From an uncultured Cellvibrionales bacterium (GTDB lineage Bacteria; Pseudomonadota; Gammaproteobacteria; Pseudomonadales; Cellvibrionaceae), in contig CAJWCA010000001.1 in the NCBI GenBank assembly GCA_913020395.1, positions 1 to 47,491 on the forward strand: a stretch of DNA of 47,491 bases. Direction: 5' to 3'. Both the position numbers and the translations under genes were made by a program. Every line of letters begins with the position of its first letter. Position 1 is the first letter of the stretch. The notes below the pieces were generated by a model. The model had not been told where the DNA came from. It saw only the letters and a list, made by a program, of their open reading frames with translations, and made no database searches. This document shows positions 18,377 through 38,070 of this stretch, piece by piece.

Positions 18377-18557
18377 TGTGGGCGGGCCGGTAGTGCTTTC
18401 GAATTAATCATAAAGCCTCAAATGACCCACGCTGTTTTCTTAGAGAGTTTCCTGTATTGTGGTTATCGCAATACAGGACAAGGACGTGGCAGTGCAGAAA
18501 TGAGCTCCTTCTCCATTTTGTCAATTCTGATCGCAATGTCTACAAAAGGAGTTTTCT

Positions 18558-18875
18558 ATGGGTCAATATATTATTAGTTATCTCGGCGGCAATCAGCCCT
18601 CAACACCTGAAGAGGGCAAGCAGCATTTTGCCAAATATAAAGAGTGGTTATCGTCGCTGGGTGATTCGGTAGTCAGCCCGGCCAATCCCTTTAAAAATAC
18701 TACCGTGGTCAGTAGTGATGGCACGGTAACAACGGGCAGTCAAACGACAATGTCCGGATACACGATTATTACTGCTGAGTCTATGGATAAAGCATTGGAA
18801 GTGGCAAGAGCTTGTCCTTTCCTGGATATTGGTGGATCGCTAGAGGTATCAGAGCTGGTGCAGATGTCGGTCTGA
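18558..18875 (+). CDS. Small YciI/DGPF-like protein (tentative)
   Basis: A good Shine-Dalgarno (AAAGGAG) precedes the ATG. The 105-aa alpha+beta protein has the pattern ...YIISYLGG...KEWLSSLG...GYTIITAESMDKALEVARACPFL..GGSLEV, reminiscent of YCII-related proteins. This is from memory only. Confidence 0.45.
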   Translation: MGQYIISYLGGNQPSTPEEGKQHFAKYKEWLSSLGDSVVSPANPFKNTTVVSSDGTVTTGSQTTMSGYTIITAESMDKALEVARACPFLDIGGSLEVSELVQMSV

Positions 18876-18988
18876 CAACCAAGATAATTAAGCTTTTCGA
18901 AAATGGTGCCGGGCTAGCGATCCTTGGCCCAGCACCCACCCGCGCACGCTCTCCTTGAACAGAGGACCGTGGCGGTTTATTAAGGCAG

Positions 18989-20113
18989 TCAGTCTTCGTT
19001 GATGTAATCCACCACTTCCAGATCAAACCCGGAGATGCCGGCATATTTGATTGGCGCGCCCAGTAAGTGCATTTTTTTGACACCCAGGCTTCGCAAAATT
19101 TGTGAACCTGCGCCCACCTGCTGGAACTGCACGTGTTCTGAACCCGGCTGGGATGACTTCATTTTTTCGCCAAACACTTCCTGAAGTTGCACTTCCAGAT
19201 TCTTTCGGCCGTGGTTTTCGCCTTCGCCTAAAAGAATCAGCACGCCGCTCCCCAGGGATTCAATTTTTTTCATCGCCCGGTGGAATGTCCAGCGGGGGAA
19301 CTTCGCACCCGGTTCAACCAAAGTCAAAAAGTCGCGTACGGGGTCTGGTGCGTGCACTCGCACATATACGGGCTCGGCAACATTAAGCTCGCCTTTCACC
19401 AGTGCGTGGTGAACGATGTCTGTCGCCTTGTCCAGATAGGTATGCAAGGTGAAAGCACCAAAGGTGGTTTCAATCTCCCGGGAGCAGGTGCGCTCAAGTG
19501 TATTTTCGTTGGCCAGTCGGTAGTGAATAAGATCGGCAATGGCCCCCATCTTTAAACCGTGTTCGGCAGCAAATACTTCCAGGTCGGGGCGGCGCGCCAT
19601 GGAGCCGTCGTCATTCATGATTTCTACAATCACCGCCGCGGGTTCCAAACCTGCCAGGCGGCCAAGATCACAGCCCGCTTCGGTGTGGCCCGCGCGGCTG
19701 AGTACTCCGCCCGGCTGTGCCATTAGGGGGAAAATATGCCCGGGCTGAACAATGTCGACAGGTTTAGCGTTGGGGCCCACGGCCGCCTGTACAGTGAGTG
19801 CGCGGTCCGCAGCTGAGATGCCGGTGCTGACACCTTGGGCGGCCTCAATGGAAACTGTGAAGTTGGTGCCATGTACAGACTTATTGCCCGAAACCATGAG
19901 TGGCAATTGCAGTTGCTCGCAGCGCCTCTCTGTGAGAGTGAGGCAAATAAGCCCGCGGCCATATTTGGCCATAAAATTAATGTCTTCCGGGCGCACCAGG
20001 GAGGCGGCAATCAACAGATCCCCCTCGTTTTCACGGTCTTCGTCGTCAACCAGAATCACCATTTTGCCCATTCGGATGTCGGCGATAATTTCTTCGGTGC
20101 TGTTTAAAGCCAT
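18989..20113 (-). CDS. ribB: 3,4-dihydroxy-2-butanone-4-phosphate synthase fused to a degenerate GTP-cyclohydrolase-II-like domain (RibBX type)
   Basis: The N-terminal half has the RibB signature [22 protein letters not shown]...HTEA. The C-terminal half aligns to RibA, but where the Zn-binding Cys motif (VRVHSECLTGD...C.C) should be it reads [13 protein letters not shown], with no cysteines. Confidence 0.9.
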
Positions 20114-20242
20114 GTCTTGCCTCTCGATAATAAGTGGGGTTCAGCGGTGGCCGGCAAAGCCCGCAGCCGTTTTGCTCGCTGAGAAGACCGGATTATTATC
20201 CAATTTGCAGCGCTTTGAAACCCGTTTTTGCTTTTCGAGGGT

Positions 20243-21238
20243 TTAATAGATGACCGTTCTTTCCTGCTCTACAAACTGTTGAAAGCTCTGCTGCCAGTGA
20301 CCATCGGGCCAAAGTATGTCCATGGCGCCTTCTTCTGGATACCAAGCGCTTGTGTAGAGCGTACCCCAGCCGTGGGCCTGGGCGCTGGTGCGATAGAGCG
20401 GAGGCTGTAAAAACAGTTGCAGAAAATGCTCGTAATTTTGTCGGGGGTCCTGTTGCCGGCTGGCAATAAATTGTTCCCGCACACGGCTGTCTGCCAGTGT
20501 TTCATACAGGGCAACTTCCCTGGGGTTTTGGTGATTGGTTGCCCGTGGTGAATGGGTGATCCTGGCTTCTTTGTCCGGTGAGAGCATGACCGTCACAAAT
20601 TCACCCTGTCGGTCCAGAGCGGTAACATTGTATGACATCTGCACCGGAATTCGCTTTAGAACCGACACGGCTTCTTTGACCGTTTGGCAAAACTCAAGCA
20701 GATAACGCAGCACCAAGGTGATGGCAAAACCTCGATCCAGAACCCGCCGGCCGCCATAGGCCAGCGAGACTGCCAGCCCGTGTTCGTTCATGCCATCGAG
20801 TACTCCCCACAAACAGTCACTCATCGCCATGACACGTGTGCCGTTCCAGTTGCTTTGTAACAAGACGGATTCACACAGGCTTGCTGGAAAGTCGTAGTTG
20901 CGTACCAGTGCGCTTCTGTCTCTGGTCCACACGCCCTGAGAGCAGCCGGCCACAAACGCAGGGGGATCATAGAGACTGAGAAAACGGGCGCTAAGTTCGT
21001 CCGCCACACACCGCACAAGCAGGCGTTCGTAGGTGGGCACTAATTCAGGCATATGGGCTTTGAGCATATTCAGACCCCGGGTGTAATCGGGGCGGCGAGC
21101 CTCTCCATCACGCAAATACCAACGCAGATAGGCCTGTGCACTTTCCTGCCAGAGGTGTTCTATCGCAAGGCCGGGCCCGAGATCGCTAATTGCACGAAAG
21201 CGGGCCCGTGTGGGTGTCAGTGTAGAGTCGCTGATCAC
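20243..21238 (-). CDS. Peptidase C45 / acyl-CoA:6-APA acyltransferase-like Ntn-hydrolase
   Basis: A propeptide of about 98 aa is followed by FVAG|CSQGVW (Cys99 as the putative self-processing nucleophile), then RNYDF and [11 protein letters not shown] blocks typical of Ntn Cys hydrolases. Confidence 0.6.
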
Positions 21239-21242
21239 AGCG

Positions 21243-22154
21243 TCACACTGTATCGAGAGTGGTTACGTTTTTCGGCATGGCGAATTCTTTTTGACCGTTG
21301 ATGTCTTCTCGGCTGGGTTTGCATAGAGGGCCGAGGGATTGCAAATAACTGTCGTCCCAAATTTCACGGTTGTAGACCGCAAAATCTGCCTTGCGATCCC
21401 GGAAGCTCTTTAAGGGCTGGCCGAGGTGTAATATGCCCCGCTCACGCTGACGCCTGACCTGGTCGAGGTCGATCTCAATAGGTATAAATTCTTCCTGTGT
21501 TTGTGACTGGTGCAGTGCGCGCCCCGAGGGATCGATGACACAGCTGCGACCGTTGCCTCCGGCGCCCAGCCCGTTGATGTCAAACACATAAGCCTGAAAC
21601 ATCGCTGCACTGGCATGGGCGATATGTAGTTCTACTTCCCTGTCGATGGTGTTGGTTAACACCGGGTGAAGAATGACTTCGGCGCCTTTTGAGACCAAGG
21701 TGCGGGTGGTTTCGGGAAACCACATGTCATAACAAATGGATAAACCAAAACACCCCACCTCGGGCACATCGAATACCAGGCATTCATCGCCGCTGCTCAC
21801 GCCCTGTTCATAGGGCATAAACGGGAAGACTTTTCGATACCGCGTAACAATGTCGCCCTGGGGGTTAATCACAGGCAGCGTGTTGTATATCAATCCGTCA
21901 TTAAGCTCAAACATTGAACCCGGAATCAACCAGACTCCGTGCTGTTTTGCCATCGCCCTGAGCTGATCTTCCGCGTTGCCCGGCATCACTTGTGCGTGTT
22001 CAATGGAGGGACCAAATGGGGCCAATTCACTGAATACCACCATTTGAACCCAGGGGTGGAGGTGCATCAACATGTCGAGTCGCTGACCCATTTCACGCAG
22101 ATTGTTTTGAGTGGAAATGTGCATCTGCACACCGGCAATGGCAAAAGGTGTCAT
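21243..22154 (-). CDS. Carbon-nitrogen hydrolase (nitrilase superfamily amidase)
   Basis: The Glu-Lys-Cys triad sits in its usual contexts: VVFSELAPFG, YRKVFPF and GLSICYDMWFPE. Confidence 0.85.
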   Translation of the reverse strand: MTPFAIAGVQMHISTQNNLREMGQRLDMLMHLHPWVQMVVFSELAPFGPSIEHAQVMPGNAEDQLRAMAKQHGVWLIPGSMFELNDGLIYNTLPVINPQGDIVTRYRKVFPFMPYEQGVSSGDECLVFDVPEVGCFGLSICYDMWFPETTRTLVSKGAEVILHPVLTNTIDREVELHIAHASAAMFQAYVFDINGLGAGGNGRSCVIDPSGRALHQSQTQEEFIPIEIDLDQVRRQRERGILHLGQPLKSFRDRKADFAVYNREIWDDSYLQSLGPLCKPSREDINGQKEFAMPKNVTTLDTV

Positions 22155-22174
22155 TAATCGCTCCCGTTGTGTTA

Positions 22175-23614
22175 TTAGTTTATTTTGTAAAGCAGGCCGT
22201 CGTGTTTTTTCAGGTTCATGTCGGGCGCGGGCAGTGTGGTGCTGTAGGATTGCTTGATGGCATTGTTCCAGCTCACCGCACGTTCGTTAATTTGACCCTC
22301 GCTGTCTTGAACCCGACCGCGGGTTAATAAAATACCCAGGTCTGCACCTTTGTAGCTGTATTCCCCCGGTCCAAGTATTCTCAGGAAAAAACCTTCTGCC
22401 TGATCAGAGGCATTGCTCCAGTCTACCGAGCGGCGTAAAAATTCAATTTCGCCCTGTTCGTCAATGCGCCAAATTCCAGAGGCGGGGGCCGAGGTGATTA
22501 AACCCACTTTGTCGTGAGTTTGTTTCAATACCAGCGTGCTCCAGCTGTCGTAGTGCAACCAGCGCTCCTGTATCGCATCGAAATCCAGCTCATATTCAAC
22601 ATCAAAGAATTCTAACAAATGGAAAAATAACAGTGGCACACCACCGTATTTTTGGGTGATTAAATTGGTAACGGGCGAGGCGCCACTGATGCGCGGATTG
22701 ATTTCTCCCAGGTACACCTCTTCAGTGTCGCGATCGATAAGAAAGTCCATGCAGAAAGTACCTTTATACCCTTCTTTATAGAGCCGTTCTCCCAGAGCGC
22801 GGGTCATTTCTATGATGCGATTGCGTTGTGATTCAGTGAATACGGTAGCCGCGGTTTCATTCCCACACCAACCGCCTTTGTAAGGGGTTATGTCGGTGTG
22901 TCCAACCACTTCCATCATCACGGGCCCAACCAGTGTGCCGTATCGGGTCGCCACTCCCTCTACGGTTCCAGAAATGGGGTCAATACGTTTCATTATCTTC
23001 AGCTCTTCACCCACAATGTCCTTTTCATAACGTTGCCAGTCTTCGGCATTGTCGATAAAAAATGTGGTACGGCCAGAGTCGCCGTAAGGGGTTTGCACGA
23101 CCAATTGATCGCCAAGGCCCGCACTTTTTGCCTGCTTGCAAAGTGCCTCATAGGTATCTGCCTTGCCCAGCTTGTTGGGCACGCTGGCAACACCCGCTTC
23201 GTTGGCCAGTTGGGTGGTAAATATTTTGGAATCGATCCGGTCTCTCAACTCGGCCGGGGGCAGAGCGATTTCAAGGCCCAGTTTTTTCGCCAATACCTCT
23301 GTCTCCTCGTCAAACATCACTGTGAGGAGCTTTCCGCCGGGCGCTTGGCTGCGAATAAGGTTCACCACCTCTTTCTTTCTCAACAGGTAGTTGACAACAT
23401 CTACCATGGATTCAAATTCGGGTGCGTCTCGCTCGTCGGGCGTAAATACCCGATGGTGATGACTGTCAAAACAATCAAAATAGTTGATGTATTGTAAGGT
23501 AGGAACTAACTGTCCGAGTCCCAACACATTGAACGGCGATGCGGAAATAAAGTAAATCGGTGTTTTATTTTCGCTGAAGAAACGGTAGATATCATTGAGT
23601 CCTTTGAGCTTCAT
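22175..23614 (-). CDS. ATP-grasp family carboxylate-amine ligase with N-terminal pre-ATP-grasp domain; substrate unknown
   Basis: The central region, KIFTTQLANEAGVASVP...LVVQTPYGDSGRTTFFI...FCMDFLIDRDTEEVYLGEINPRISGA, shows an ATP-grasp fold pattern. I trimmed the start to the ATG at 23612-23614 (MKLKGLNDIY) with GAGGAA upstream. The track's longer ORF would overlap the upstream lipoprotein gene. Confidence 0.7.
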   Translation of the reverse strand: MKLKGLNDIYRFFSENKTPIYFISASPFNVLGLGQLVPTLQYINYFDCFDSHHHRVFTPDERDAPEFESMVDVVNYLLRKKEVVNLIRSQAPGGKLLTVMFDEETEVLAKKLGLEIALPPAELRDRIDSKIFTTQLANEAGVASVPNKLGKADTYEALCKQAKSAGLGDQLVVQTPYGDSGRTTFFIDNAEDWQRYEKDIVGEELKIMKRIDPISGTVEGVATRYGTLVGPVMMEVVGHTDITPYKGGWCGNETAATVFTESQRNRIIEMTRALGERLYKEGYKGTFCMDFLIDRDTEEVYLGEINPRISGASPVTNLITQKYGGVPLLFFHLLEFFDVEYELDFDAIQERWLHYDSWSTLVLKQTHDKVGLITSAPASGIWRIDEQGEIEFLRRSVDWSNASDQAEGFFLRILGPGEYSYKGADLGILLTRGRVQDSEGQINERAVSWNNAIKQSYSTTLPAPDMNLKKHDGLLYKIN

Positions 23615-23644
23615 GGTGTCATAATTCCTCGATTGATTGTCAGG

Positions 23645-23673
23645 TGTTAAATTATTGTTATTGTCTTGTTGTC
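23645..23673. promoter_or_regulatory. Three 11-bp-phased TGTT-type repeats upstream of the ATP-grasp gene
   Basis: TGTTAAA (23645), TGTTATT (23656) and TGTTGTC (23667), each start exactly 11 bp apart, lie in the 167-bp gap between the lipoprotein and ATP-grasp genes. This is a degenerate version of the TGTTAAC pairs found elsewhere in the locus. Confidence 0.35.
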
Positions 23674-23781
23674 GCTGTCTGTGAATGATTTGTCGCAGTA
23701 TTCTAAGTGAGCAGTGGGTAATGTGTTTCATTGACAAGAAACGGCGATACATAACCTGTTTTCCGGTGTTCCCATGGGCGC

Positions 23782-24360
23782 TCAAGTTTTTGCCGGTATA
23801 CATTGAATACCACCCTCGGGGTCTTCGGCAGAATTGCTGCTTGCTGTGGATGCTTTCAGTACTGATGGTTCAGTTAGTGCCGCGGGGGTAATTCGGGGAG
23901 TGGTGTTTGTTGCCAATGATTCCCGTTTGAAAGGTCTCCACTGACCCTGTTCTTTGATGTAAGCAACAAAACCATTGATATTTAAACTTGTTTCTCCATC
24001 AATCGTTTGAGCGTTCATTGCTGACAGACCGTCTTCTGAGATATTGAGTAAACGATGTAGTTGTCGCGTTTGAACAGAGTCCCACTCCTGTGACGACCAC
24101 TGACCAGAGAAGTGGAGCTGGGTAGTAAAATAAATCAGATATGCCGATTCACCTTGTTCACTGGTGTAGGGCTGACCGCCGCGTCTAGTAAAATCAACCA
24201 TCGATAACGCACCCTCGCCAAAGGTGTTATTCAGGCCAGACTGCAATTGTTCATTAATTGTTTTTCTATCGGGCCCCTGGCTGCACCCCGTGAGAAGCAG
24301 GCAGAGAGAAGCCAGCAGCAAAAAAAGCAAACTGGAAGACAAAACATTGGAACGGTTCAT
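23782..24360 (-). CDS. Lipoprotein of unknown function
   Basis: Signal peptide with the lipobox LLLTGC|S. No recognisable catalytic motif. It sits 9 nt downstream of gltS. Confidence 0.6.
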   Translation of the reverse strand: MNRSNVLSSSLLFLLLASLCLLLTGCSQGPDRKTINEQLQSGLNNTFGEGALSMVDFTRRGGQPYTSEQGESAYLIYFTTQLHFSGQWSSQEWDSVQTRQLHRLLNISEDGLSAMNAQTIDGETSLNINGFVAYIKEQGQWRPFKRESLATNTTPRITPAALTEPSVLKASTASSNSAEDPEGGIQCIPAKT

Positions 24361-24369
24361 TGTGTTTCC

Positions 24370-25590
24370 TCAGTGAACAAAGGGCAGCGCAAGATAAGAC
24401 TGAATAACCAATGCGTTGGTAATATCAATAAAAAAGGCCCCCACCATCGGCACAACTAAAAATGCCTGAGGGGAGGGGCCAAAACGGGAAACCAGTGATT
24501 CCATATTTGCCACGGCTGTAGGCGTGGCACCCAGACCAAAGCCACAGTGACCGCCCGCCATAATGGCGGCGTCATAGTTAGCACCCATCAACCGGAAGGT
24601 AATGAAGTAAGCAAACAGGGCAAGGGTGAATGTTTGCACCAGAATAATTAACAGAATGGGGCCTGCAAGATTGAGCAATTCCCAGATGCGCAGAGACATT
24701 AGTGCCATTGCCAAAAAGATCGAAAGCGCCATCGTGCCCCATAGGTCGACACAGGCTTTGCTGATTACATATTCACCTGAAAATTCGCAGGCATTGGTGA
24801 ATATAATGCCGAGGATCAGAGGTACAATAAATGAAGGAATAGGTACAGAATGCGCCTTTAACCATTCGTAGAGGTACGCACCTGCACTCATGCACATAAT
24901 TAAAATAAGCAGGGTTTCCATCATGCGCTTGGGCGTGACCAGGTCTTTGTCTTCCGGGTCGTAGGTGATGATGTCGTCGCGGTTGTGGTGGGCCTGATGA
25001 GAGGCGGGTTCAAGCGCGTGGCGGGCGATCAAGCGTTTGCACACTGGCCCTCCCAGCAATCCGCCCAGCACCAGGCCAAACGTTGCCGAGGCCATGGCGA
25101 TTTCCAACACACCCTGAAGATTGTGGCTGTCACCCAACATTTCGGCGTAAGTGGCGCCCGTGCCGTGCCCGCCAGAGAGTGTGATGGAACCGGCTATCAT
25201 GCCAAACAGGGGGTGCAGGTCTGTACTCAGGGCCATAGAAATACCGATGGCGTTTTGTACCATCAAATAGAGGCTGGCTACCAACAGGAAGAGAAAGACT
25301 TTGGGGCCGCCTTTCATCAAGAGTTTGAAGCTGGCCCCCAGCCCCACAGAGGTGAAAAACACGATCATTAAGGGTGTTTTTAAACTCAAGTCAAAATTCA
25401 GTGATACGTCAAACTGAGCGTAGAGCACCGCGCTGATCAGTGAGAATGCAATGCCTCCCACAACCGGTTCAGGAATATTATTGTCTTTAAGAAAGTGCAC
25501 TCGGTGATTGATGGCATAACCGGAAAACAGGATCAGCAGGGCAATGCCTATGGTTTCAAAAAAGCCAATATCAAAAGCCATAGCAAACAC
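24370..25590 (-). CDS. gltS: Sodium/glutamate symporter GltS
   Basis: About 400 aa and polytopic. The N-terminus ...ETIGIALLILFSGYAINHRV.FLKDNNIPEPVVGG and the overall pattern match the GltS family. Confidence 0.85.
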   Translation of the reverse strand: MFAMAFDIGFFETIGIALLILFSGYAINHRVHFLKDNNIPEPVVGGIAFSLISAVLYAQFDVSLNFDLSLKTPLMIVFFTSVGLGASFKLLMKGGPKVFLFLLVASLYLMVQNAIGISMALSTDLHPLFGMIAGSITLSGGHGTGATYAEMLGDSHNLQGVLEIAMASATFGLVLGGLLGGPVCKRLIARHALEPASHQAHHNRDDIITYDPEDKDLVTPKRMMETLLILIMCMSAGAYLYEWLKAHSVPIPSFIVPLILGIIFTNACEFSGEYVISKACVDLWGTMALSIFLAMALMSLRIWELLNLAGPILLIILVQTFTLALFAYFITFRLMGANYDAAIMAGGHCGFGLGATPTAVANMESLVSRFGPSPQAFLVVPMVGAFFIDITNALVIQSYLALPFVH

Positions 25591-25677
25591 TCTCGCAGGT
25601 GGGTGACGGTGTAGGCCGGTAATTTACCAGCTGCCTGTGTCTAAGCTATTGCTGAAATATGCCATGCGGTGATCAAG

Positions 25678-25710
25678 TGTTAACAAGCTGTTAACCCGGC
25701 AGATGTTAAC
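25678..25710. promoter_or_regulatory. TGTTAAC direct repeats in the gltS/decarboxylase divergent promoter region
   Basis: TGTTAAC occurs at 25678, 25689 (+11) and 25704. Confidence 0.5.
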
Positions 25711-25811
25711 CGAAGGTTTACAATTTATTGCAAGGTTCTTACCCGGCTGTGAGTGAGATTGGGTATTCTTTTGGCTCCAAATCCCCTACCCAGTAATCAC
25801 TTGGTGACAAT

Positions 25812-28676
25812 ATGGCTGCCCAAAAAACAGAAGAGATGTACAGCGCAATCGGTTTTTATCACCGTTTCTTCCACCAGCGTTCAGACACCTGGAATCAACT
25901 CAAAACAGATGTCGCCAGTTTGGCTAAAGAGAGCGAGGGGAGTGAGAAACTAGAGCGCTTGAATACCTCGGTTGTTAATGCTCTAGTGCAGTTAGAACGT
26001 TTTGAGGAATACACAGCGTTCCCTTCTAAGAGTGACTTCCAGTATTTGTGGCGGCTCTATCACAGCGAACAGTTTCAGCAATTGGACGTATCAGTGTCAC
26101 GGGTTGTGCGTGCGATTTCTTCCGGGATATACAGAAGTAAGTCCATTGTGCTCGATCAGCCTTTGATGAAAATGCATAAAGCCGAGGACGACCACCACGC
26201 CTCAGAGCTCACGCCAACGGTCACAAAAAGCAAAAATCGTCCTTATTTTGAGCTTCTGCTGGTTGATAATTTTTCGTCGGTTAAGCAGGAAGAGGCCGCC
26301 AGACGTGCTTTGCTGGACATGCGGCACGCCGATGACCGGTACATTTATGACGTTGTTGCGGTGAATAACTTTGAAGATGCATTGGTGGCTCTGCTCATCA
26401 ACCCGAATATTCAGTCATGTATTGTGAGGCATGACTTTGCATTTCGCTCTAAAAACGAAACCGGGTTTTTGCACCCCTATATGCCAAGTACCAATGATTC
26501 TGAATTTGCCGATCTGAAAGATGCGCAAAAGGGAGTGTTGTTGGGCACAGCGCTGAAAAACATACGTCCTGAAATTGATTTATTTTTACATACCAATAAC
26601 GCCTTGGAAGAGGCCGCCACGGGTGAGGCGCTCTGTTTTAACCGAATTTTCTACGGTGATCCGGACATTATTGAGCAGCACCACAGCATTCTACGGGGAA
26701 TTTATGGTCGTTATCAGACGCCATTCTTCTCCGCACTGCGTTTACATAGCCGGCGGCCTATCGGTGTTTTTCACGCCATGCCGCTGTCTCGGGGCAAGTC
26801 CATTTTTGCGTCAAACTGGATTCAAGACATGGCCGAGTTCTATGGGCGCAATATCTTTATGGCCGAGACTTCTGCCACATCCGGTGGTCTGGATTCCCTG
26901 TTGCAACCCCGGGGGCCAATGAAAAAAGCACAGGAATTGGCGTCGAAGGCGTTTGGTTCAAAAGAAACGTATTTTGTCACCAATGGCACGTCAACCGCCA
27001 ATAAAATTGTTGTTCAGGCGCTGATTAAACCGGGCGATATCGTATTGGTAGACCGGGACTGCCACAAGTCCCATCACTATGGCCTGATGTTAATGGGGGC
27101 CAATGTTTCCTATTTAGACTCCTATCCGCTTGATCACTATTCGATGTACGGTGGTGTGCCCCTGAGGGATATCAAGAAAAAACTGCTTGAATTCAAACGG
27201 GCGGGAAAACTTGATCGTGTCAAAATGTTGTTGCTCACGAACTGCACGTTTGACGGCATTGTCTACAATACTCGCCGTGTGATGGAGGAGTGTCTGGCGA
27301 TCAAACCAGACTTGGCATTCCTGTGGGACGAAGCATGGTTTGCCTTTGCAACGTTCAATCCAATTTATCGACCGCGCACGGGTATGCATGCGGCCAGAAA
27401 AATTAAACACACCTGCCGCACCGAAGACTATCGCAAGCGGTATCAGGAGTACAAAACGGCCTTTGATAAACTCGACCCGGAAGATGATGCCACCTGGCTT
27501 GATCGCCCGTTAATGCCAGACCCAGATAAAGTGCGCATGCGGGTATATACCACTCACTCAACCCATAAAACGCTCACGTCTCTGCGTCAGGGCTCGATGA
27601 TTCATGTCTACGATGAAGATTTCAGGAGTCAGAGTCGGGGCGCTTTTCACGAAGCGTATATGACTCATACCTCTACGTCGCCAAATTACCAGATTTTGGC
27701 GTCTTTGGATGTGGGCAGGCGCCAAGTAGATTTTGAGGGCTACGAGCTGGTTCACAAGCAGATTGAAGTGGCCTTGGCGCTTCGTGAGCAGTTGTATCGT
27801 CATCCCACCTTGAGCCGGTATTTTAAGGTTCTGGTGAATAAAGACCTGGTGCCAGGAGAATTTAGACAGTCGGGTGTCGAGAGTTACTACGATGACAAAA
27901 CCGGCTGGAGTCACATGGAGGATGCCTGGTATGACGATGAATTTGTGGTTGACCCAACACGCATCACTCTTTACATCGGTAATACAGGTGTTGACGGCGA
28001 CACCTTTAAAAACCGTTATTTAATGGACGCCCACGGTATACAGGTGAATAAAACCTCACGTAACACCGTTCTGTTCATGACCAACATTGGTACAAGTCGC
28101 AGCGCTATTGCCTACCTGATTGGTGTATTGGTTAAAATCGCCCGCGACCTCGATGTCCGGCAGGAAGAGAGTAGCCCGGCCGAACAATTGATCATAAAAA
28201 AACGCGTGGTATCTTTGACAAGGGAGCTGCCGCCGCTGCCGGACTTTAGCCATTTTCATCGAATATTTAGTCCGGGTTATGCAGATCAGACCACCGAAGG
28301 AGATATTCGCAAGGCTTATTTTGATGCTTATGATGATGAAAACTGCGAATTTTTGCGTATTGATAACGGCGATTTACAACGGAAGATTCAAAAGGGTTGC
28401 GAAGTGGTGGCCGCAACATTTGTAATTCCCTATCCTCCTGGGTTTCCCGTGCTGGTACCTGGGCAAGTAATCAGTGAGGAGATACTGGCGTTTATTCTGG
28501 CGTTGGATGTATCGGAAATTCATGGTTACAACCCCGATGTGGGTGTATGTGTTTTCCGAGATTCTTTACTGCAGGCGGAAGATTCCCGCCCGGAAACGAA
28601 AGTTATTACGCAAGAGAAAGTAGAGAAGGAGCGTATCAAAAAGAAAAGAGAGAAAAAGACCGCGGTCCCGCTTTAG
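25812..28676 (+). CDS. Orn/Lys/Arg decarboxylase family (fold-type I, LdcI/SpeC-like) PLP enzyme with extra N-terminal domain and Lys-rich C-terminal tail
   Basis: Motifs TNGTSTANKIVVQALIKPGD, DRDCHKSHHYG and the PLP lysine in YTTHSTHKTLTSLRQGS. A wing (receiver-like) domain starts near residue 145 (YFELLLVDNF...). About 140 aa of unmatched N-terminal sequence precede it. The protein ends ...KVEKERIKKKREKKTAVPL. Confidence 0.85.
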   Translation: MAAQKTEEMYSAIGFYHRFFHQRSDTWNQLKTDVASLAKESEGSEKLERLNTSVVNALVQLERFEEYTAFPSKSDFQYLWRLYHSEQFQQLDVSVSRVVRAISSGIYRSKSIVLDQPLMKMHKAEDDHHASELTPTVTKSKNRPYFELLLVDNFSSVKQEEAARRALLDMRHADDRYIYDVVAVNNFEDALVALLINPNIQSCIVRHDFAFRSKNETGFLHPYMPSTNDSEFADLKDAQKGVLLGTALKNIRPEIDLFLHTNNALEEAATGEALCFNRIFYGDPDIIEQHHSILRGIYGRYQTPFFSALRLHSRRPIGVFHAMPLSRGKSIFASNWIQDMAEFYGRNIFMAETSATSGGLDSLLQPRGPMKKAQELASKAFGSKETYFVTNGTSTANKIVVQALIKPGDIVLVDRDCHKSHHYGLMLMGANVSYLDSYPLDHYSMYGGVPLRDIKKKLLEFKRAGKLDRVKMLLLTNCTFDGIVYNTRRVMEECLAIKPDLAFLWDEAWFAFATFNPIYRPRTGMHAARKIKHTCRTEDYRKRYQEYKTAFDKLDPEDDATWLDRPLMPDPDKVRMRVYTTHSTHKTLTSLRQGSMIHVYDEDFRSQSRGAFHEAYMTHTSTSPNYQILASLDVGRRQVDFEGYELVHKQIEVALALREQLYRHPTLSRYFKVLVNKDLVPGEFRQSGVESYYDDKTGWSHMEDAWYDDEFVVDPTRITLYIGNTGVDGDTFKNRYLMDAHGIQVNKTSRNTVLFMTNIGTSRSAIAYLIGVLVKIARDLDVRQEESSPAEQLIIKKRVVSLTRELPPLPDFSHFHRIFSPGYADQTTEGDIRKAYFDAYDDENCEFLRIDNGDLQRKIQKGCEVVAATFVIPYPPGFPVLVPGQVISEEILAFILALDVSEIHGYNPDVGVCVFRDSLLQAEDSRPETKVITQEKVEKERIKKKREKKTAVPL

Positions 28677-29401
28677 ACCGCGCTCACCTCGGCGATAAAA
28701 ATGTAACCTGTGCCGTGGGCAGTATTGATGTATTTAGGATTGTCCCGGTCATCGCCAAGTTTCTTGCGAATCCGGGCAATCATGACATCAATCGTTCTGT
28801 CGGTTGGAAACCACTCTCTGCGTTCCATGCGGTTCATGATTTGATCCCGGCTAAGCACCGTGCCTGCGTGATTGATCAGGGTGTAGAGTAACTTGAATTC
28901 GCCCTCTGTCAGTTGAATGGACTCCTCGTCTGCCGTGAGCAGTCGGCGACCGACATGCAGAGTCCAACGATCAAAACTCACGGCGGTGGACGTTTTCAAG
29001 CCACTGGGGCCGGAGAGGGGGTTTGCCTTTACTCGAGACAGCAGGTTTTTGACTCGAGCAAACAGCTCTCGGGTGTTATAGGGTTTGGTGACGTAGTCAT
29101 CGGCGCCCAATTCGAGCCCCACAATACGATCGATATCGTCGTCTTTGTGTGTGACCAAAATGATGCCCACATCGGATTTATTGCGAATTTCGCGTGTCAG
29201 CGACAGCCCGTCTTTCCCGGGTAGATTGATATCCATCAGGATAACATCAACGGTATGTTGCTGAATGATCTTTTCAGCCTCATCGCCATTGACCGCCTTG
29301 TGAACGACGTAGTTTTCCTTTTCAAAATAGCTGGCAAGCAAGTTGAGGCTGGCTACTTCGTCTTCAACAATCAATATGCGTGGTGTCTGGTTGTCTGTCA
29401 T
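28673..29401 (-). CDS. OmpR/PhoB-family response regulator (receiver plus winged-helix DNA-binding domain)
   Basis: Motifs RILIVEDE, ILMDINLPGKDG, DDYVTKP and the C-terminal winged helix LTEGEFKLLYTL...RTIDVMIARIRKKL...GTGY. I prefer the ATG at 29399-29401 (MTDNQTP) over the GTG at 29422, but the choice is uncertain. Confidence 0.85.
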   Translation of the reverse strand: MTDNQTPRILIVEDEVASLNLLASYFEKENYVVHKAVNGDEAEKIIQQHTVDVILMDINLPGKDGLSLTREIRNKSDVGIILVTHKDDDIDRIVGLELGADDYVTKPYNTRELFARVKNLLSRVKANPLSGPSGLKTSTAVSFDRWTLHVGRRLLTADEESIQLTEGEFKLLYTLINHAGTVLSRDQIMNRMERREWFPTDRTIDVMIARIRKKLGDDRDNPKYINTAHGTGYIFIAEVSAV

Positions 29402-29415
29402 AGTAATAAAACGTC

Positions 29416-29454
29416 TGTTCACAATCTGTTAATAGTATAAGAGGCTTTGTTACA
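29416..29454. promoter_or_regulatory. TGTTCAC / TGTTAAT / TGTTACA phased repeats between the response-regulator gene and ggt-1
   Basis: TGTTCAC at 29416, TGTTAAT at 29427 (+11) and TGTTACA at 29448 (+21). Confidence 0.4.
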
Positions 29455-29584
29455 AACAACTAAGATTAGGTAATACCGGTTAATCACTTAGTTGGTATAG
29501 TACCGCTAGAAAGCAGTGCTGCTTTTTTCAAGGTCCTTGTCAGTGTAAGGGAAGAAAAATTAATTAACAAGTTGGTGATAAACG

Positions 29585-31351
29585 ATGTCGAATAGCAGGC
29601 TCAGCGTACGACTAATAAAAATATTTTGCTCGGCCATGACTGTAATCTGTGCTGTCTTTATCCAGGCTGATGCAGCCGCAGAAACACCTAAAAAAGCCTC
29701 AGTTTATATCTTGCGTTACGACGCCATTCACCAACCGGTTTACGGTGCCAATGGCATGGTCGCCAGCCAAAATACAGCCTCGAGTGAGGTGGGCCGAGAC
29801 ATATTAGCCCGTGGAGGGAACGCGATTGACGCGGCAGTTGCCATGGGCTTTTCATTGGCTGTCACACTTCCGCGTGCAGGTAACCTTGGGGGCGGCGGAT
29901 TTATGCTGGTTCATGTTGCAGCCGAAAACAAAACGGTAGCCATTGATTATCGAGGCACGGCACCGAGCCGTGCTAAAGCGAGTGATTTCCTCGATCGCGA
30001 AGGTAAGGTTGATGCAAAACGCAGCAAACTCGGCCACACCTCCTCCACCGTGCCTGGCACAGTTGCAGGTTTGTATGCCGCTCATCAGCGCTGGGGAAAG
30101 CTTCCCTGGAAAACCTTGCTTCAGCCCGCTATTAAACAAGCGTCAAAAGGTATTCAAGTCAACCGGGACCTGGCGTGGGCCATACAGGCCAAACGTTCCG
30201 TACTGGCCAAGAACCCAGAGTCACTCAACACTTTTTTTAAGGCCGATGGTGTCGGGTTTGAAGAGGGTGAACTGATGCGCCGACCCCAATTGGCAAAAAC
30301 CTTGAAGCTGATTGCCAAGAAAGGCCGCGACGGTTTTTATCGAGGTGCAGTCGCTGAAAAGATAGAAAAGGACATGGCTCTTCATGGTGGTTTGATCACC
30401 CGGGATGATCTCGCCAATTACGAAGCTGTTGTTAAAGCGCCGTTAAAAGGCAGTTACCGTGGCCACGACGTGGTCACAATGCCACCTCCTGCGGGCGGCG
30501 TTCATTTACTTCAAATGTTAAATACCCTGGAGCACTTTCCACTCGGGCAATGGGGCAGTCAGTCTTCAAAAACCGTGCATGTTTTGTCTGAAAGTATGAA
30601 GCGGGCCTATGCTTACAGGGCTGAATTTCTTGGAGATCCGGATTTTGCTTCAGTCCCCACCCAGTGGTTAATGAGCAAGACATTAGCGGCAGACCTGGCT
30701 GAAGGTATTACACCGAACCGCGCCACACCGGTTGCTGAGATCAAGCCGAAACACCCGGCCTCGTTGGATGAAAGTGCTGATACAACACATTATTCCATCA
30801 TGGACAGTGAGGGGAACGCGGTTTCCAATACTTATACCCTCAGTGCCTCCTTTGGGTCTGGTGTTACGGTAAAAGACACCGGCATTTTGATGAATAACCA
30901 AATCAACAACTTTGCGCTGCGTTATGGGGTGCCGGGCGCCACAGGTGCAAGAGCGAGTTTTGCCAACTCTCTAGCGCCTGGAAAGCGCACTAAAAGTACC
31001 CAAACACCCATTATTGTATTCGCTCAAGGTCGCCCCTGGTTCGCCAGTGGCACACCGGGTGGCAGGCGCATTATCACCACAATGGTACAGGTGGTCTCCA
31101 ATGTCATTGATCATGGAATGAATATCGCTGACGCCACCCATGCCCCCAGAATTCACCAGGGTTGGTCCTCAGATACCCTCGAACATGAACCTGGTTTTAG
31201 TGAAGACACACTGGGTGCATTGAGGGCCATGGGGCACCCGCTAAAACAAGGCGCCACGATGGGCAGCGTGCAATCGGTGCTGTGGCAGAACAATCAATTT
31301 AGTGGTGCGGCCGACCCTCGCAGGCCCAACGCCAGTGCCAGAGGATTTTGA
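29585..31351 (+). CDS. ggt: Gamma-glutamyltranspeptidase (periplasmic Ntn hydrolase), copy 1
   Basis: Signal peptide. Motifs GMVASQ, GGNAIDAAVA, LPRAGNLGGGGFML, the autoprocessing/nucleophile Thr in ADTTHYSIMD, and TPGGRRIITT. Confidence 0.92.
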   Translation: MSNSRLSVRLIKIFCSAMTVICAVFIQADAAAETPKKASVYILRYDAIHQPVYGANGMVASQNTASSEVGRDILARGGNAIDAAVAMGFSLAVTLPRAGNLGGGGFMLVHVAAENKTVAIDYRGTAPSRAKASDFLDREGKVDAKRSKLGHTSSTVPGTVAGLYAAHQRWGKLPWKTLLQPAIKQASKGIQVNRDLAWAIQAKRSVLAKNPESLNTFFKADGVGFEEGELMRRPQLAKTLKLIAKKGRDGFYRGAVAEKIEKDMALHGGLITRDDLANYEAVVKAPLKGSYRGHDVVTMPPPAGGVHLLQMLNTLEHFPLGQWGSQSSKTVHVLSESMKRAYAYRAEFLGDPDFASVPTQWLMSKTLAADLAEGITPNRATPVAEIKPKHPASLDESADTTHYSIMDSEGNAVSNTYTLSASFGSGVTVKDTGILMNNQINNFALRYGVPGATGARASFANSLAPGKRTKSTQTPIIVFAQGRPWFASGTPGGRRIITTMVQVVSNVIDHGMNIADATHAPRIHQGWSSDTLEHEPGFSEDTLGALRAMGHPLKQGATMGSVQSVLWQNNQFSGAADPRRPNASARGF

Positions 31352-31585
31352 AAATGATCAGTGTGGAGAGTAGTCAATCAATGAGTAAAAAAACGACCCG
31401 TTACCACTTGGCCGTCCAGCCCAACATGGTCCCCTATACCCGCTCACCGGCCATGGAACGAGATCACAGCGCTCAGCAGAACGGAGATCAGAAGGGCAGT
31501 AAATCACTGCCCTCGAGGCTTCCGGGCAGTGGATACACCTTTGAAGAGGTAGAGGATTGCGCTGAGCTGGGCTACAACTGAGCCC

Positions 31586-31603
31586 TGTTAACAACTCGTT
31601 AAC
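31586..31603. promoter_or_regulatory. TGTTAAC-N4-CGTTAAC repeat upstream of the second TonB receptor
   Basis: The sequence is cTGTTAACAActCGTTAACAAgg, with GTTAAC cores 11 bp apart, 156 bp upstream of the ATG at 31759. Confidence 0.5.
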
Positions 31604-31758
31604 AAGGTGATACAAGATGAGACGGCCCGCTTATTTGGCATTAACCACAGGGGAGTAGGATGAAATGGTAGGCAGGTAAATAGATCTGTCGCCATTCATG
31701 CAAAACAGCGGTCACAATAAAGCCCAGGTGTCAGACCCCGGGGCAATAGGAGAGCAGG

Positions 31759-34700
31759 ATGTTTAAAGCAAATAAATTAAGCCTTACAATTCTCGGTATT
31801 ATTTCGATGAATTCCACTCTGGCACAGAGTGTGAACGATGCCAATAATTCAGCCGAAGACCTCGATTTGATCCTCGAAGAGGTGGTGGTCACCGGCACCC
31901 ACATTAAGGGTGTAGATGTTGCAGGCGCACTGCCCGTTAGCATGTTGGACAGCGATGACCTCGATGCCATTGGCGCCTCAAGCACCGAAGAGTTGATAGC
32001 CGCTATTCCCCAGGCAGGCCAGGTAACTTTCAACAGCGACGATACCAGCACGTCTTCAAACAGTGTGCGGGGCGACGTTGGCTCTTTGAATCTCCGCGGA
32101 TTGGGCGCAGACAGCACGCTGGTTCTGGTGAACGGCCGCAGAATGGTAATGAATCCTTCCTCTTCTTCCGTTAACGGTGTGCCTGTTCAGTTTGTGAATA
32201 CCTCTATGTTGCCGGCGATGGGCATCGACCGGGTCGAAGTGCTACGGGATGGCGCTGCGGCGATCTACGGTACAGATGCCGTAGCGGGTGTAGCGAACTA
32301 CGTATTAGACACGGATTACGAAGGTTTTGAAGTGGCCGTTCGTCAAGGCGGTGCATCGGGTGAAAGCCTGAACGAAAACACAATTTCGGGCCGGGCTGGC
32401 TTCGAATTTAATGGCGGTCGCACACATGTCACTGTGTTTGGCAGTCGCTTTAATCGCTCGGGTATGGAGGCCAGCGAAGTGGAGTGGGCGGAGTCAAGTG
32501 ACTACCGCGAATCCGATAGAACACCCACTGATTTTATCGGCGATACCTCTCTCAGAAATTTGTCCACCTTCACCCCTTGGGGCCAATTCAATCTGGGTTC
32601 CATAGACTCGGCAACCGGCGCTTTTACGCCGGCGGGTGTATCGGGCATTGCCCGCAGTAGCGACGGTCGATTCCACTTGCAGCCTGAGGGCACCAGCGGT
32701 GGAACCTCTTTGGGTAATGGCATTGAAATTGATGACTCTACTTTGAACAGCGAACTGCGTTATAACATCAACGATCTGCGCATGCTTACCGGTGATATCA
32801 AGCGCAACAATGTCTTTGCGACCATGACACACGAGTTAGACAATGGCATTGAGATGTTTTCAGAAGCCTCTTATTACCAGTCTGATTACGCTTCGTATTT
32901 TGGCCCCAACGTCATTTCCGATGTGAACAAAATGTACATCCCCGCTGATTCCCACTACAACCCCTTTGGGCCGGTTGGCAGTGAACACAGAATGGCTGGG
33001 TTAGATCTTGCTGATGTGCCTGCTGAAGGTTTGAATGTGAAAGTGGATCGTCTGCGTCTTTACGACACAGGTCCAAGAACCATTGACGTTGAAGCGGACT
33101 CTTATCGTTTTGTCGGTGGATTGCGCGGTGAATTTGAAGGCTGGGATTGGGAGTCGGGTGTGTTTTATTCCGAAGCCAAGTCAACAGACTCTCAGTTGAG
33201 TGTGAGTCGCTCACGTTTTTATGAGGCGGTATCACGTACAACACCAGATGCCTACAACCCCTTCACGGGTGGTAACCCTGATGACGTTGCCAATGGAGAT
33301 CCCACCCCTGGTGGCGACGCTTCTGAGTTTACCGTGGATGTTGAACGCCACAACAAAACACGCCTAAGCGGTGCGGATTTTAAAATATCCACTGGATCTT
33401 TGTTTGCTTTGCCCGCGGGTGATGTAGGTGCTGCTTTTGGTATAGAGCAGCGTCGCGAAACCTATGACGACGATCGCGACCCTACACTGGATGGCACCAT
33501 CACCTTTACTCACCCATTAAGCGGTCAGTTCTTTGACAGTGACATTATGGGAGTGAGCGCGACTCCTGACACAGTGGGTAGCCGTGAAGTGTATTCAGCC
33601 TATGCAGAATTTATGGTTCCCATTATTGGTGATCATCAGAATATTCCCTTGGTAAAAAGCCTGAATGCACAACTGGCAATCCGGGGAGAAAACTACTCTG
33701 ATGTCGACGCCGATGTGGTGAAACCTAAGGTGGCAGTATCCTGGCGTCCGACCGACTGGCTGCAAGTTCGCAGTGCCTGGTCAAAAGGCTTTAGAGCACC
33801 AAACCTGGAAACGTTAAACTTGACCGTTCAGGAGCGTTTCAGCAACAACCAGGAAGACTTCCTTCGTTGTGCCACTGGCCAGGCTGCTGGCACCATAGAG
33901 GCTGATGTTGATGCTTGTTCCGCTTCCATCATTACACGCCGATTGGGCAACAGTGATTTGGAGCCTGAAGAGTCTGAAAACCTTACCTTCGGAGTCGTGA
34001 TTGAACCTACCTTTATTGAAGGTTTGACCGTGACCCTGGACTGGTGGGAAATTGAACAAGAAGGTGTTGTTGGGCTCTTTGGTCGTGACAATCACCTCCT
34101 GTTAGATCAGGCAATGCGCTTCCAGGGCAGCACCAACCCCGCCGTTGTACGGGCTGCGGCCACCGCTCAGGACCAGGCTGAAATGGATGCTTACAATGCG
34201 GCAAACAATACTAGTCTTGCCGCAGTGGGCAGCTTGCTTTACATCGATGATCAGTTCCTGAATTTGCAGCCACGTGCAATGCAGGGCACAGATATGAGCC
34301 TGACTTATCGTATTCCGGAAGGAGACTGGGGGCGTTTCACGCTTAAGTTTAACGCCGCTTACTTGATTAAATGGGACCAAGACGCGTCTTCGGATGTGAA
34401 TGCCCTGATGGAAGAGTTGAATGGCAACCCCTTGATCACCGGTGACGTGACCTCTGAAACAGTGGGCAGCCAGTTGTTGGACGAGAGCAAGCCACGCTGG
34501 AGAGCGAATTCCAGTTTGACTTGGAGTAAAGGACCCTGGCGCGCCGGTTTAAGTGCACGGTATGTGGGAGAGGTTTTTGACTACGATGTAGAAGCCGATG
34601 AGAACCCCGGTCAGCACCTTAAAATACCTTCGTGGTTAACCTTCAATACCTACGCAGACTATCGCGTTGAAGGTGGAGCGTTTGACAATACCCGTGTGAG

Positions 34701-34824
34701 ATTAGGTGTAAACAACCTGTCTGATGAAGAGCCACCACTGTTTGATGCCTCTGCGGGTTACAGCGCATCGCTGCATTCCAATCGGGGTCGCTATGTCTAC
34801 TTGGATATTAAGAAGTCGTTCTAA
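31759..34824 (+). CDS. TonB-dependent outer-membrane receptor (large, 1021 aa)
   Basis: Signal peptide, TonB box/plug LEEVVVTGTHIKG, RVEVLRDGAAAIYGTDAVAGVANY, a long barrel and the terminal ...YLDIKKSF. Confidence 0.9.
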   Translation: MFKANKLSLTILGIISMNSTLAQSVNDANNSAEDLDLILEEVVVTGTHIKGVDVAGALPVSMLDSDDLDAIGASSTEELIAAIPQAGQVTFNSDDTSTSSNSVRGDVGSLNLRGLGADSTLVLVNGRRMVMNPSSSSVNGVPVQFVNTSMLPAMGIDRVEVLRDGAAAIYGTDAVAGVANYVLDTDYEGFEVAVRQGGASGESLNENTISGRAGFEFNGGRTHVTVFGSRFNRSGMEASEVEWAESSDYRESDRTPTDFIGDTSLRNLSTFTPWGQFNLGSIDSATGAFTPAGVSGIARSSDGRFHLQPEGTSGGTSLGNGIEIDDSTLNSELRYNINDLRMLTGDIKRNNVFATMTHELDNGIEMFSEASYYQSDYASYFGPNVISDVNKMYIPADSHYNPFGPVGSEHRMAGLDLADVPAEGLNVKVDRLRLYDTGPRTIDVEADSYRFVGGLRGEFEGWDWESGVFYSEAKSTDSQLSVSRSRFYEAVSRTTPDAYNPFTGGNPDDVANGDPTPGGDASEFTVDVERHNKTRLSGADFKISTGSLFALPAGDVGAAFGIEQRRETYDDDRDPTLDGTITFTHPLSGQFFDSDIMGVSATPDTVGSREVYSAYAEFMVPIIGDHQNIPLVKSLNAQLAIRGENYSDVDADVVKPKVAVSWRPTDWLQVRSAWSKGFRAPNLETLNLTVQERFSNNQEDFLRCATGQAAGTIEADVDACSASIITRRLGNSDLEPEESENLTFGVVIEPTFIEGLTVTLDWWEIEQEGVVGLFGRDNHLLLDQAMRFQGSTNPAVVRAAATAQDQAEMDAYNAANNTSLAAVGSLLYIDDQFLNLQPRAMQGTDMSLTYRIPEGDWGRFTLKFNAAYLIKWDQDASSDVNALMEELNGNPLITGDVTSETVGSQLLDESKPRWRANSSLTWSKGPWRAGLSARYVGEVFDYDVEADENPGQHLKIPSWLTFNTYADYRVEGGAFDNTRVRLGVNNLSDEEPPLFDASAGYSASLHSNRGRYVYLDIKKSF

Positions 34825-34836
34825 AAGTAGATAGAT

Positions 34837-34867
34837 AAAAAAACGGGGCTTTATGCCCCGTTTTTTT
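34837..34867. terminator. Bidirectional Rho-independent terminator
   Basis: AAAAAAA-CGGGGC-TTTAT-GCCCCG-TTTTTTT lies between the convergent receptor gene (stop at 34824) and the binding-protein gene (stop at 34883). Confidence 0.85.
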
Positions 34868-34882
34868 ATGCCCAAATATTCA

Positions 34883-35656: not shown

Positions 35657-35659
35657 AAC

Positions 35660-37978: not shown

Positions 37979-38070
37979 ATTAGGGGTCTCTGGCCAATCC
38001 TGAAGGTGCTGTAGTCAGTGTAAAGCCTGACAGAGGTTTAGCAATAGCCAGCCCGGGGGCGCGAGGGCGG

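Follow-up and report, generated by a model that had tools for sequence, protein, structure and literature searches.

Two enzymes of gamma-aminobutyrate (GABA) metabolism in Mycobacterium tuberculosis were characterised separately in 2026. The first, Rv2531c, decarboxylates L-glutamate, but not lysine, ornithine or arginine, and sustains the GABA pool (PMC13506015); it is a "cloaked" long-form decarboxylase, with structures available as 9N0N, 9N0O and 9N0P (PMC12329521). The second, Rv1722 (GabtS), is an ATP-grasp enzyme formerly annotated as a carboxylase, which uses GABA, trehalose and ATP to make GABA-trehalose (bioRxiv 10.64898/2026.04.15.718621). It does so by joining the GABA carboxylate to the trehalose 6'-hydroxyl as an ester (10.64898/2026.04.15.718621). 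Here we describe a locus in which relatives of both enzymes are neighbours, in the company of two amide hydrolases and a glutamate symporter. It lies in a stretch of 47,491 nucleotides (nt), hereafter "the window," from an uncultured Cellvibrionales bacterium (contig CAJWCA010000001.1 of assembly GCA_913020395.1, which is 84% complete and made of 402 contigs). On balance, we favour reading this locus as a conserved module that makes GABA and then conjugates it, fed here by a dedicated glutamate importer.

In such a module, GltS would import glutamate, part of it perhaps released in the periplasm by the two GGTs that the window encodes further along. A divergently transcribed decarboxylase of the Rv2531c type would turn this glutamate into GABA, whose carboxylate the ATP-grasp enzyme would then activate as an acyl phosphate and join to an acceptor. 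The C45-family and/or the Nit-like hydrolase would finally cleave the conjugate, or a derivative of it, so that GABA is released or recycled. The features concerned, with lengths in amino acids (aa) or nucleotides and the source of each assignment, are as follows:

25812-28676, plus strand: long-form pyridoxal phosphate (PLP) decarboxylase of the Rv2531c type, 954 aa, predicted to convert L-glutamate into GABA (PDB match)
25591-25811, no strand: intergenic region of 221 nt from which gltS and the decarboxylase gene diverge (open reading frame coordinates)
24370-25590, minus strand: gltS, sodium/glutamate symporter, 406 aa (TIGR00210, PF03616)
23782-24360, minus strand: small lipoprotein, 192 aa, lipobox LLTGC (without Pfam or NCBIfam match)
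23615-23781, minus strand: spacer of 167 nt, with a GAGGA ribosome-binding site ahead of the ATP-grasp start codon (sequence reading)
22175-23614, minus strand: ATP-grasp ligase of the Rv1722 family, 479 aa (NF005096, M. tuberculosis match)
21243-22154, minus strand: nitrilase-superfamily C-N hydrolase (CN-hydrolase), 303 aa, Nit/omega-amidase-like (PF00795)
20243-21238, minus strand: C45-family Ntn hydrolase or acyltransferase, 331 aa (NF040521, PF03417)

Evidence for a module comes from its conservation. A scan of one genome per species yielded 209 relatives of the ATP-grasp protein, from which 80 loci were retained, and clustering was counted over the 55 loci whose flanks reach at least 4 kb in both directions. 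A CN-hydrolase and/or C45 gene lies no more than 6.1 kb from the ATP-grasp gene in 53 of these 55, the median distance being 1.3 kb for the CN-hydrolase and 0.3 kb for C45 (321 nt, in the other loci). The clustered loci span Alpha- and Gammaproteobacteria, Actinomycetota and others, and the gene order varies among these three groups, so that shared ancestry alone does not account for the clustering, which selection maintains. There are also natural fusions, in which the ligase is joined either to an amidase-signature domain, which shares 50% identity with the amidase whose gene adjoins C45-ligase in locus L005, or to a PF00144 domain of the beta-lactamase family; through them, ligase and hydrolase are seen to be functionally tied. 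An initial annotation of the window, made from its sequence, had proposed that an ATP-dependent ligase is paired here with amide hydrolases and that the idea would fall if the enzymes were not co-localised in other genomes: the co-localisation is indeed found, and together with the fusions its extent across phyla strongly supports the proposal.

The set of genes that the same annotation delimited does need to be redrawn, since it counted in gltS and the lipoprotein gene, which are not conserved members, and left out the decarboxylase gene at 25812-28676, which is. When the order and the class of the source bacterium were sampled evenly, the decarboxylase gene was found to adjoin the ATP-grasp gene in all seven gammaproteobacterial carriers; the loci with a homologue beside that gene are L001, L088, L090, L091 and L098-L104. 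Among the closest relatives, with ligases 60-83% identical to that of the window, a 917-970-aa "Orn/Lys/Arg decarboxylase" is encoded directly next to the ligase, and several of the sampled gammaproteobacterial loci have all the genes on a single strand, for example in the order CN-hydrolase, decarboxylase, ligase, C45. In the two nearest relatives (L001 and L088) the genes for decarboxylase and ligase diverge directly from one another; gltS and the lipoprotein gene therefore look like local additions, inserted between them in the window, and no homologue of either was found among more than 100 other locus records. Not counting the genome of the window itself, 3 of 150 genomes in the order and 6 of 399 scored genomes in the class carry the module, a rarity which suggests that it is accessory and moves horizontally. 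We found no description in the literature of an operon combining these genes, and neither of the two 2026 M. tuberculosis papers mentions a linkage between the Rv2531c and Rv1722 families.

What, then, does the decarboxylase act upon? Against PDB entries 9n0n/9n0o, that is Rv2531c, it scores 834 bits (E 1e-249), with residues 21-922 aligned to 24-903. With 954 aa, against 947 aa for 9n0n_A, it shares the four-domain long form and also has the extra domain at the N-terminus, whereas solved lysine, arginine and ornithine decarboxylases reach at most 191 bits and align only from about residue 300. Six residues of Rv2531c (H405, K406, R576, T606, R718, and N731) have been proposed to bind PLP and the carboxylates of glutamate (PMC13506015). 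When the HMMER alignment is read against that proposal, H405, K406, R576, T606, and N731 are retained in the window protein, which we predict to be an L-glutamate decarboxylase making GABA. The setting differs, as the M. tuberculosis gene stands apart and feeds the GABA shunt, while that of the window sits with a ligase and hydrolases beside a glutamate symporter and encodes a lysine at the position of R718.

A different substrate would lead to a different pathway. Pfam and NCBIfam class the enzyme with the Orn/Lys/Arg decarboxylases, and there are alphaproteobacterial loci with Puu-like genes, a PotD-type transporter and a DABA-decarboxylase-like gene; the decarboxylase might thus act on lysine, ornithine or arginine and the ligase acylate the diamine, possibly as a Puu-like variant in which a polyamine is protected and then oxidised. 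The Puu pathway itself ends in GABA, however, the gap between 834 and 191 bits speaks against such a substrate, and the protein retains the Arg and Thr to which binding of the side chain of glutamate has been ascribed. With Rv2531c being inactive on all three amino acids (PMC13506015), the polyamine reading was dropped, and we regard diamine conjugation as very unlikely.

GABA, on the other hand, would account for the varied neighbourhoods of the loci that have no decarboxylase gene, if the neighbours do what their family names suggest. These loci carry Puu-like GS, DAO, and GATase1 genes with a PotD-type ABC transporter, a class-III aminotransferase and an aldehyde dehydrogenase that look like GabT and GabD, a thiamine-dependent decarboxylase with an aldehyde dehydrogenase, or else an amino-acid permease and TRAP transporters. 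In L089, where the ligase is 70% identical to that of the window, the decarboxylase gene is replaced by an arginase-family gene (L089:7913-9004) that overlaps the ligase start, and its product is possibly a guanidinobutyrase supplying GABA. Downstream in L089 are genes for a class-III aminotransferase, a group-II PLP decarboxylase, and a TonB receptor.

The case for GABA as the substrate of the ligase is built on its relationship to Rv1722. The M. tuberculosis genome in our collection (G1184) was recognised with a 71-aa Rv2531c peptide from the PDB alignment, which it matches at 100% at 2.86 Mb of a single 4.4-Mb contig. It contains a single match to the window ligase (45% identity, E 2.4e-142, residues 3-464 of 479), and a PF00144 hydrolase gene begins 66 nt downstream on the same strand. 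Rv1723 has been described as a beta-lactamase-like serine hydrolase (10.1101/2025.02.25.640225), and because the match and its adjoining gene fit the Rv1722-Rv1723 layout, we took the match as Rv1722. The same arrangement, with a PF00144 hydrolase gene about 60 nt after a GabtS-like ligase gene on the same strand, is seen in three mycobacteria (G1184:C1:1947906-1950517, L111:338-2901, and L112:332-2898). As to PF00144-ligase fusions in a single protein, these are P0131 and P0133-P0135.

The window ligase and Rv1722 thus have in common full-length homology, the family motifs GGWCGN and YLGE-x-NPR-x-SGASP (found in the window ligase and in the mycobacterial orthologues), a misleading "carboxylase" annotation, and a hydrolase gene directly alongside. 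GABA is predicted to be the substrate here too. They differ in that the mycobacterial ligase gene is unlinked to a glutamate decarboxylase gene and is followed by a PF00144 serine hydrolase gene instead of C45 and CN-hydrolase genes. The mycobacterial orthologues also lack the C-terminal tail of a lysine and two hydrophobic residues discussed below, and the ester with trehalose contrasts with the amine acceptor that we expect for the window enzyme. No non-mycobacterial homologues were found in the supplement of the Rv1722 preprint. As early as 2009, Rv1722 ("carboxylase") and Rv2531 ("arginine decarboxylase") both figured in the high-confidence list of M. tuberculosis horizontally acquired genes (PMC3087520, Table 2); the two are unlinked in M. 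tuberculosis and operon partners in other bacteria.

The NCBIfam name of the family would make the ligase a true biotin carboxylase, and biotin carboxylases are indeed the top Foldseek matches of its AlphaFold2 (AF2) model, which has a pLDDT of 91.3. Yet its score against NF005096 ("biotin carboxylase") is 670.3 bits, short of the 684 cut-off, and in a search independent of Foldseek PurK, PylC, BesA, and PurT tie with the biotin carboxylases at Z 21-23, a range that widens to Z 20-23 when L-amino-acid ligases are counted in. When the ligase is aligned by profile to Rhizobium etli pyruvate carboxylase, NPRISGAS stands opposite NPRIQVEH, so that the QVEH with the catalytic glutamate reads SGAS. 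Nor did the neighbour clusters that recur around the 80 loci, or seven Pfam-annotated contigs, include any biotin-carrier or carboxyltransferase gene, singleton neighbours having been scanned in part. The "biotin carboxylase" label is therefore not supported, and since the characterised relative is a ligase, a genuine carboxylase is scarcely credible. It had been foreseen that the protein might belong to an unrelated family such as a carboxylase subunit; this is not what was found, the NF005096 name being only a label. The predicted structure does overturn one point of the initial annotation, to which the long N-terminal pre-domain and the C-terminal extension of about 100 aa had seemed unusual. 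Residues ~12-460 of the model align to structures of the PurK/biotin-carboxylase/PylC type, whose N- and C-domains these ordinary segments are, and only the last ~10-15 residues make up a real disordered tail.

Both hydrolases keep the catalytic residues of their families. The CN-hydrolase matches PF00795 with 104.9 bits, its best solved relative is the mouse Nit2 omega-amidase (2w1v), and its orthologues are 55-68% identical across phyla. The E-K-C triad already noticed in the initial annotation (E43-K108-C141) is invariant in 25 orthologues, as is E148. The C45 protein scores 128.7 bits against NF040521 (cut-off 85) and 105.1 bits against PF03417. Over 26 orthologues C99 is invariant, and the R113-N-Y-D116 motif, D148, N151, N204, and N235 are invariant or nearly so. 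A processing site G|C99 had been suggested for this protein: the cysteine holds throughout, while the residue before it varies and is not always a glycine, so self-processing is predicted simply to occur before Cys99. The profile searches against Pfam and NCBIfam thus bore out the proposed identities of these two proteins, of gltS, and of the ATP-grasp enzyme.

The nature of these partners bears on the type of bond that the ligase forms. The initial annotation assumed an amide, although the closest characterised relative, Rv1722, forms the ester GABA-trehalose (bioRxiv 10.64898/2026.04.15.718621). Throughout the family, the partner hydrolases are mostly amidases: CN-hydrolase, C45, amidase signature, and class-I GATase. 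The PF00144 family includes esterases. Given that nearly all the partners are amidases, and that the ester-forming mycobacterial enzyme is the one encoded beside a PF00144 protein, an amine acceptor and an amide product, rather than a sugar ester, are to be expected here. The hydrolases would presumably act on this product.

The same partners could be read in another manner, as glutaminase-type subunits from which the ATP-grasp enzyme would receive ammonia, in the manner of carbamoyl-phosphate synthetase or NAD synthetase. CN-hydrolases, Ntn hydrolases, amidase-signature proteins, and class-I GATases all have members or kin that are glutaminase subunits, and the NPRISGAS of the ligase resembles the NPRxSRSS motif of carbamoyl-phosphate synthetase. 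But a second glutaminase in the same operon would be superfluous, the characterised relative is a plain ligase that works without such a partner, and the PF00144 hydrolases found beside or fused to the ligase are, to our knowledge, not glutaminase subunits. Such an amidotransferase is highly improbable. As for direct contact between ligase and CN-hydrolase, their predicted complex scored 0.00, under the mark, which speaks neither for nor against binding.

A ligase and a hydrolase with opposite effects, as in the make-and-cleave cycle that we favour, are known from other systems. In Drosophila, Tan, a C45-family homologue of isopenicillin-N acyltransferase, cleaves beta-alanyl-dopamine and beta-alanyl-histamine (PMC1285064), and with Ebony it forms a pair in which an ATP-using ligase and a self-processing C45 hydrolase act oppositely on the conjugate of an omega-amino acid (PMC1285064). 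The nucleophilic cysteine after the processing site is conserved in the window C45 protein and its orthologues. Ebony differs in being NRPS-like and not an ATP-grasp enzyme, and in using beta-alanine instead of GABA. A second comparison is the Escherichia coli glutathionylspermidine synthetase/amidase Gsp, in which an ATP-grasp ligase goes with a Cys-nucleophile amidase that reverses its reaction. Like Gsp, some relatives of the window ligase are fused to the amidase with which they are paired; the subfamilies are nonetheless unrelated, Gsp acts on glutathione and spermidine and lacks a decarboxylase partner. A further example of a C45 enzyme that cleaves amine conjugates is AzsT, a desuccinylase (PMC10445470).

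To which acceptor would GABA be joined? The partner hydrolases differ from that of the mycobacterial enzyme, and the ligase has an additional lysine tail, which together make an acceptor other than trehalose likely. The window ligase ends in K477-I-N (codons at 22178-22186). Of 131 family proteins, 120 have a lysine as the third residue from the C-terminus, with two hydrophobic residues after it (for example KIN, KMF, or KWF); across phyla, 97 of 107 locus rows show this ending. The linker ahead of it is hypervariable and often proline-rich, and the tail is disordered in the AF2 model, with pLDDT below 50 at residues 467-470 and 477-479. The motif is missing from the mycobacterial orthologues and from the ligase-hydrolase fusions, and ligases partnered by a PF00144 hydrolase lack the lysine. 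So do L101 and L104, divergent members that have C45 and the decarboxylase. The tail lysine may serve for docking; a bolder idea is that it is itself the acceptor.

In its bold form this idea becomes a tethered-substrate pathway, which we consider unlikely. The ligase would join GABA to the epsilon-amino group of its own K477, or else to the C-terminal lysine of the small protein labelled u18, and C45 and the CN-hydrolase would act on the protein-bound gamma-aminobutyryl group or release it. The conserved motif at the end of a hypervariable, disordered tail would suit such a role, as would amidase partners facing an isopeptide bond and the fact that most u18 proteins, present at some loci, likewise end in lysine. 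The tail is absent from the fusions and from the mycobacterial orthologues, which have a PF00144 hydrolase of esterase type beside them and whose characterised relative uses a free sugar. All this is correlative, however, and a C-terminal tripeptide could equally well be a docking motif or an autoinhibitory plug. Stoichiometric self-modification would be odd for an enzyme, and L101 and L104 keep C45 and the decarboxylase without the lysine. That the ligase makes no free metabolite at all, and that GABA is loaded onto K477 of its own tail for C45 and the CN-hydrolase to act there, is a similarly doubtful proposition. Such a system would resemble the carrier pathways of the LysW type, or the swinging arms of biotin and lipoyl groups; if true, it would be a new self-carried swinging-arm pathway built on an ATP-grasp enzyme. 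In L090, a 56-aa open reading frame before the ligase was considered as a LysW-like carrier and rejected, as it is neither LysW-like nor conserved.

The initial annotation had instead supposed that glutamate is the substrate of the ligase and that a glutamate-containing amide (a glutamyl-amine, an N-acyl-glutamate, or a small peptide) is made and turned over. In favour of this, gltS is part of the same gene string and its identity is secure (451.9 bits against TIGR00210, cut-off 310.75, and 433.7 bits against PF03616), two GGT genes are nearby in the window and one GGT gene is found in L090, and BesA, a gamma-glutamyl ligase, is among the structural neighbours of the ligase with a Z of 22.1. 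But gltS is not conserved with the module, the conserved neighbour strips glutamate of its alpha-carboxylate (PMC13506015), and the characterised relative of the ligase uses GABA (10.64898/2026.04.15.718621). A glutamate amide is therefore quite improbable, and the conserved glutamate decarboxylase makes a GABA-containing compound the likelier product. The coupling to glutamate import, also proposed at the time, remains sensible.

A GABA-making and GABA-conjugating module is the reading that we keep, and several points weigh against it. Its function is a prediction from sequence for every member of this operon type. With R718 replaced by lysine, five of the six residues proposed for Rv2531c are identical in the window decarboxylase; the Rv2531c mutants of the proposed specificity residues were mostly unstable, and the roles of these residues are thus modelled (PMC13506015). 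The M. tuberculosis ligase match is taken to be Rv1722 through the identification of the genome and the neighbouring gene, and at 45% identity the substrates of the window ligase may differ from those of Rv1722. As for gltS, it is unique to the window locus and linked to the module by position only. Many alphaproteobacterial loci have the ligase and CN-hydrolase alone, in a housekeeping neighbourhood with no visible source of GABA nearby. Finally, a simple make-and-break cycle would need fewer hydrolases than the two different ones encoded here.

Two M. tuberculosis enzyme families studied apart from one another are thus found side by side in one operon of many free-living bacteria, together with two uncharacterised amide hydrolases. 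This suggests that making and then conjugating GABA is widespread and not peculiar to mycobacteria, as an undescribed branch of GABA metabolism. Candidate functions would follow for thousands of proteins now named "biotin carboxylase," "Orn/Lys/Arg decarboxylase," "C45 peptidase," or "carbon-nitrogen hydrolase." The hydrolase encoded beside Rv1722, taken as Rv1723, becomes a candidate for the breakdown of GABA-trehalose, an open question in the preprint. The window adds a physiological frame, in which TonB-dependent uptake, periplasmic GGTs, and a glutamate symporter would feed the module.

Turning to the gene string itself, the minus strand of 20243-25590 holds five co-oriented genes with successive gaps of 9, 167, 20, and 4 nt, as the initial annotation had it and as the reading frame coordinates agree. 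The longest reading frame of the ATP-grasp gene extends to 23803, but the ATG at 23614 is backed by homologues, which have 479-484 aa and align from residue 2-3. In the 167-nt gap (23615-23781) the coding strand shows no terminator-like hairpin, and a single weak promoter-like match (23650-23621) is not above chance; co-transcription of the genes on either side is putative. The 221-nt divergent region likewise holds one promoter-like match, on the minus strand at 25683-25656, that is not above chance, and an Rfam scan of 18500-26200 returned nothing approaching a gathering score.

The small lipoprotein matches no Pfam or NCBIfam family and has one close homologue (P0137, 91% identical) among 5.8 billion proteins. 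P0137 has 163 aa and ends about 30 residues earlier than the 192-aa reading frame of the window, whose last ~30 residues, partly overlapping the longest ATP-grasp reading frame, may not be conserved. A full HMMER search returned 152 distant homologues, mostly of about 500 aa and matched at their N-terminus, and all eight of the longer ones that were scanned (363-667 aa) have a C-terminal NMT1_3 domain. By this search, the lipoprotein is a stand-alone copy of the ~140-aa N-terminal domain of TAXI-type solute-binding proteins of about 500 aa. It was also considered as a TAXI-type TRAP solute-binding protein in its own right and rejected, as it has no NMT1_3 domain and the 167-nt gap is too small for one. 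Its AF2 model (pLDDT 78) gives weak matches to NTF2-like folds, with Z of at most 6 and no functional lead.

Some additional features were noticed at other loci. Of the 80 loci, 15 encode beside the module a small conserved protein that has no Pfam or NCBIfam family and is absent from the window (for example L002:10814-11221, L005:4993-5481, L011:9485-9883, L015:2762-3118, L018:12327-12680, and L069:5914-6369). Its core of about 110 aa has the motif GGGF(G/A)DQ...W.V...VDG...SARG..REW.SLDRLE.WLR, and six of the eight proteins inspected have a C-terminal lysine. At several actinobacterial loci, a protein of 490-640 aa without a Pfam family is encoded directly upstream of C45-ligase (L033:4996-6594, L054:5113-6594, L072:4997-6907, and L076:5194-6669). 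The actinobacterial ligases P0125-P0130 (847-890 aa) have an N-terminal extension of 350-400 aa with a conserved start (MTA-x-AN) and a conserved junction (PRA-x-P-x-GPEAPEAT-x-GTDAAFA). It was rejected as an extra domain, being a low-complexity Ala/Pro/Thr/Lys stretch.

Farther along the window, at 28673-39935, genes for a TonB-dependent receptor, a 257-aa protein, a hybrid histidine kinase, and an OmpR-type regulator recur beside the module at L091:12607-19440. In L090, positions 1-3622 hold a GGT gene and a PGA_cap (CapA-like) gene upstream of the module. This larger island may be a conserved setting in which gamma-glutamyl compounds are scavenged.

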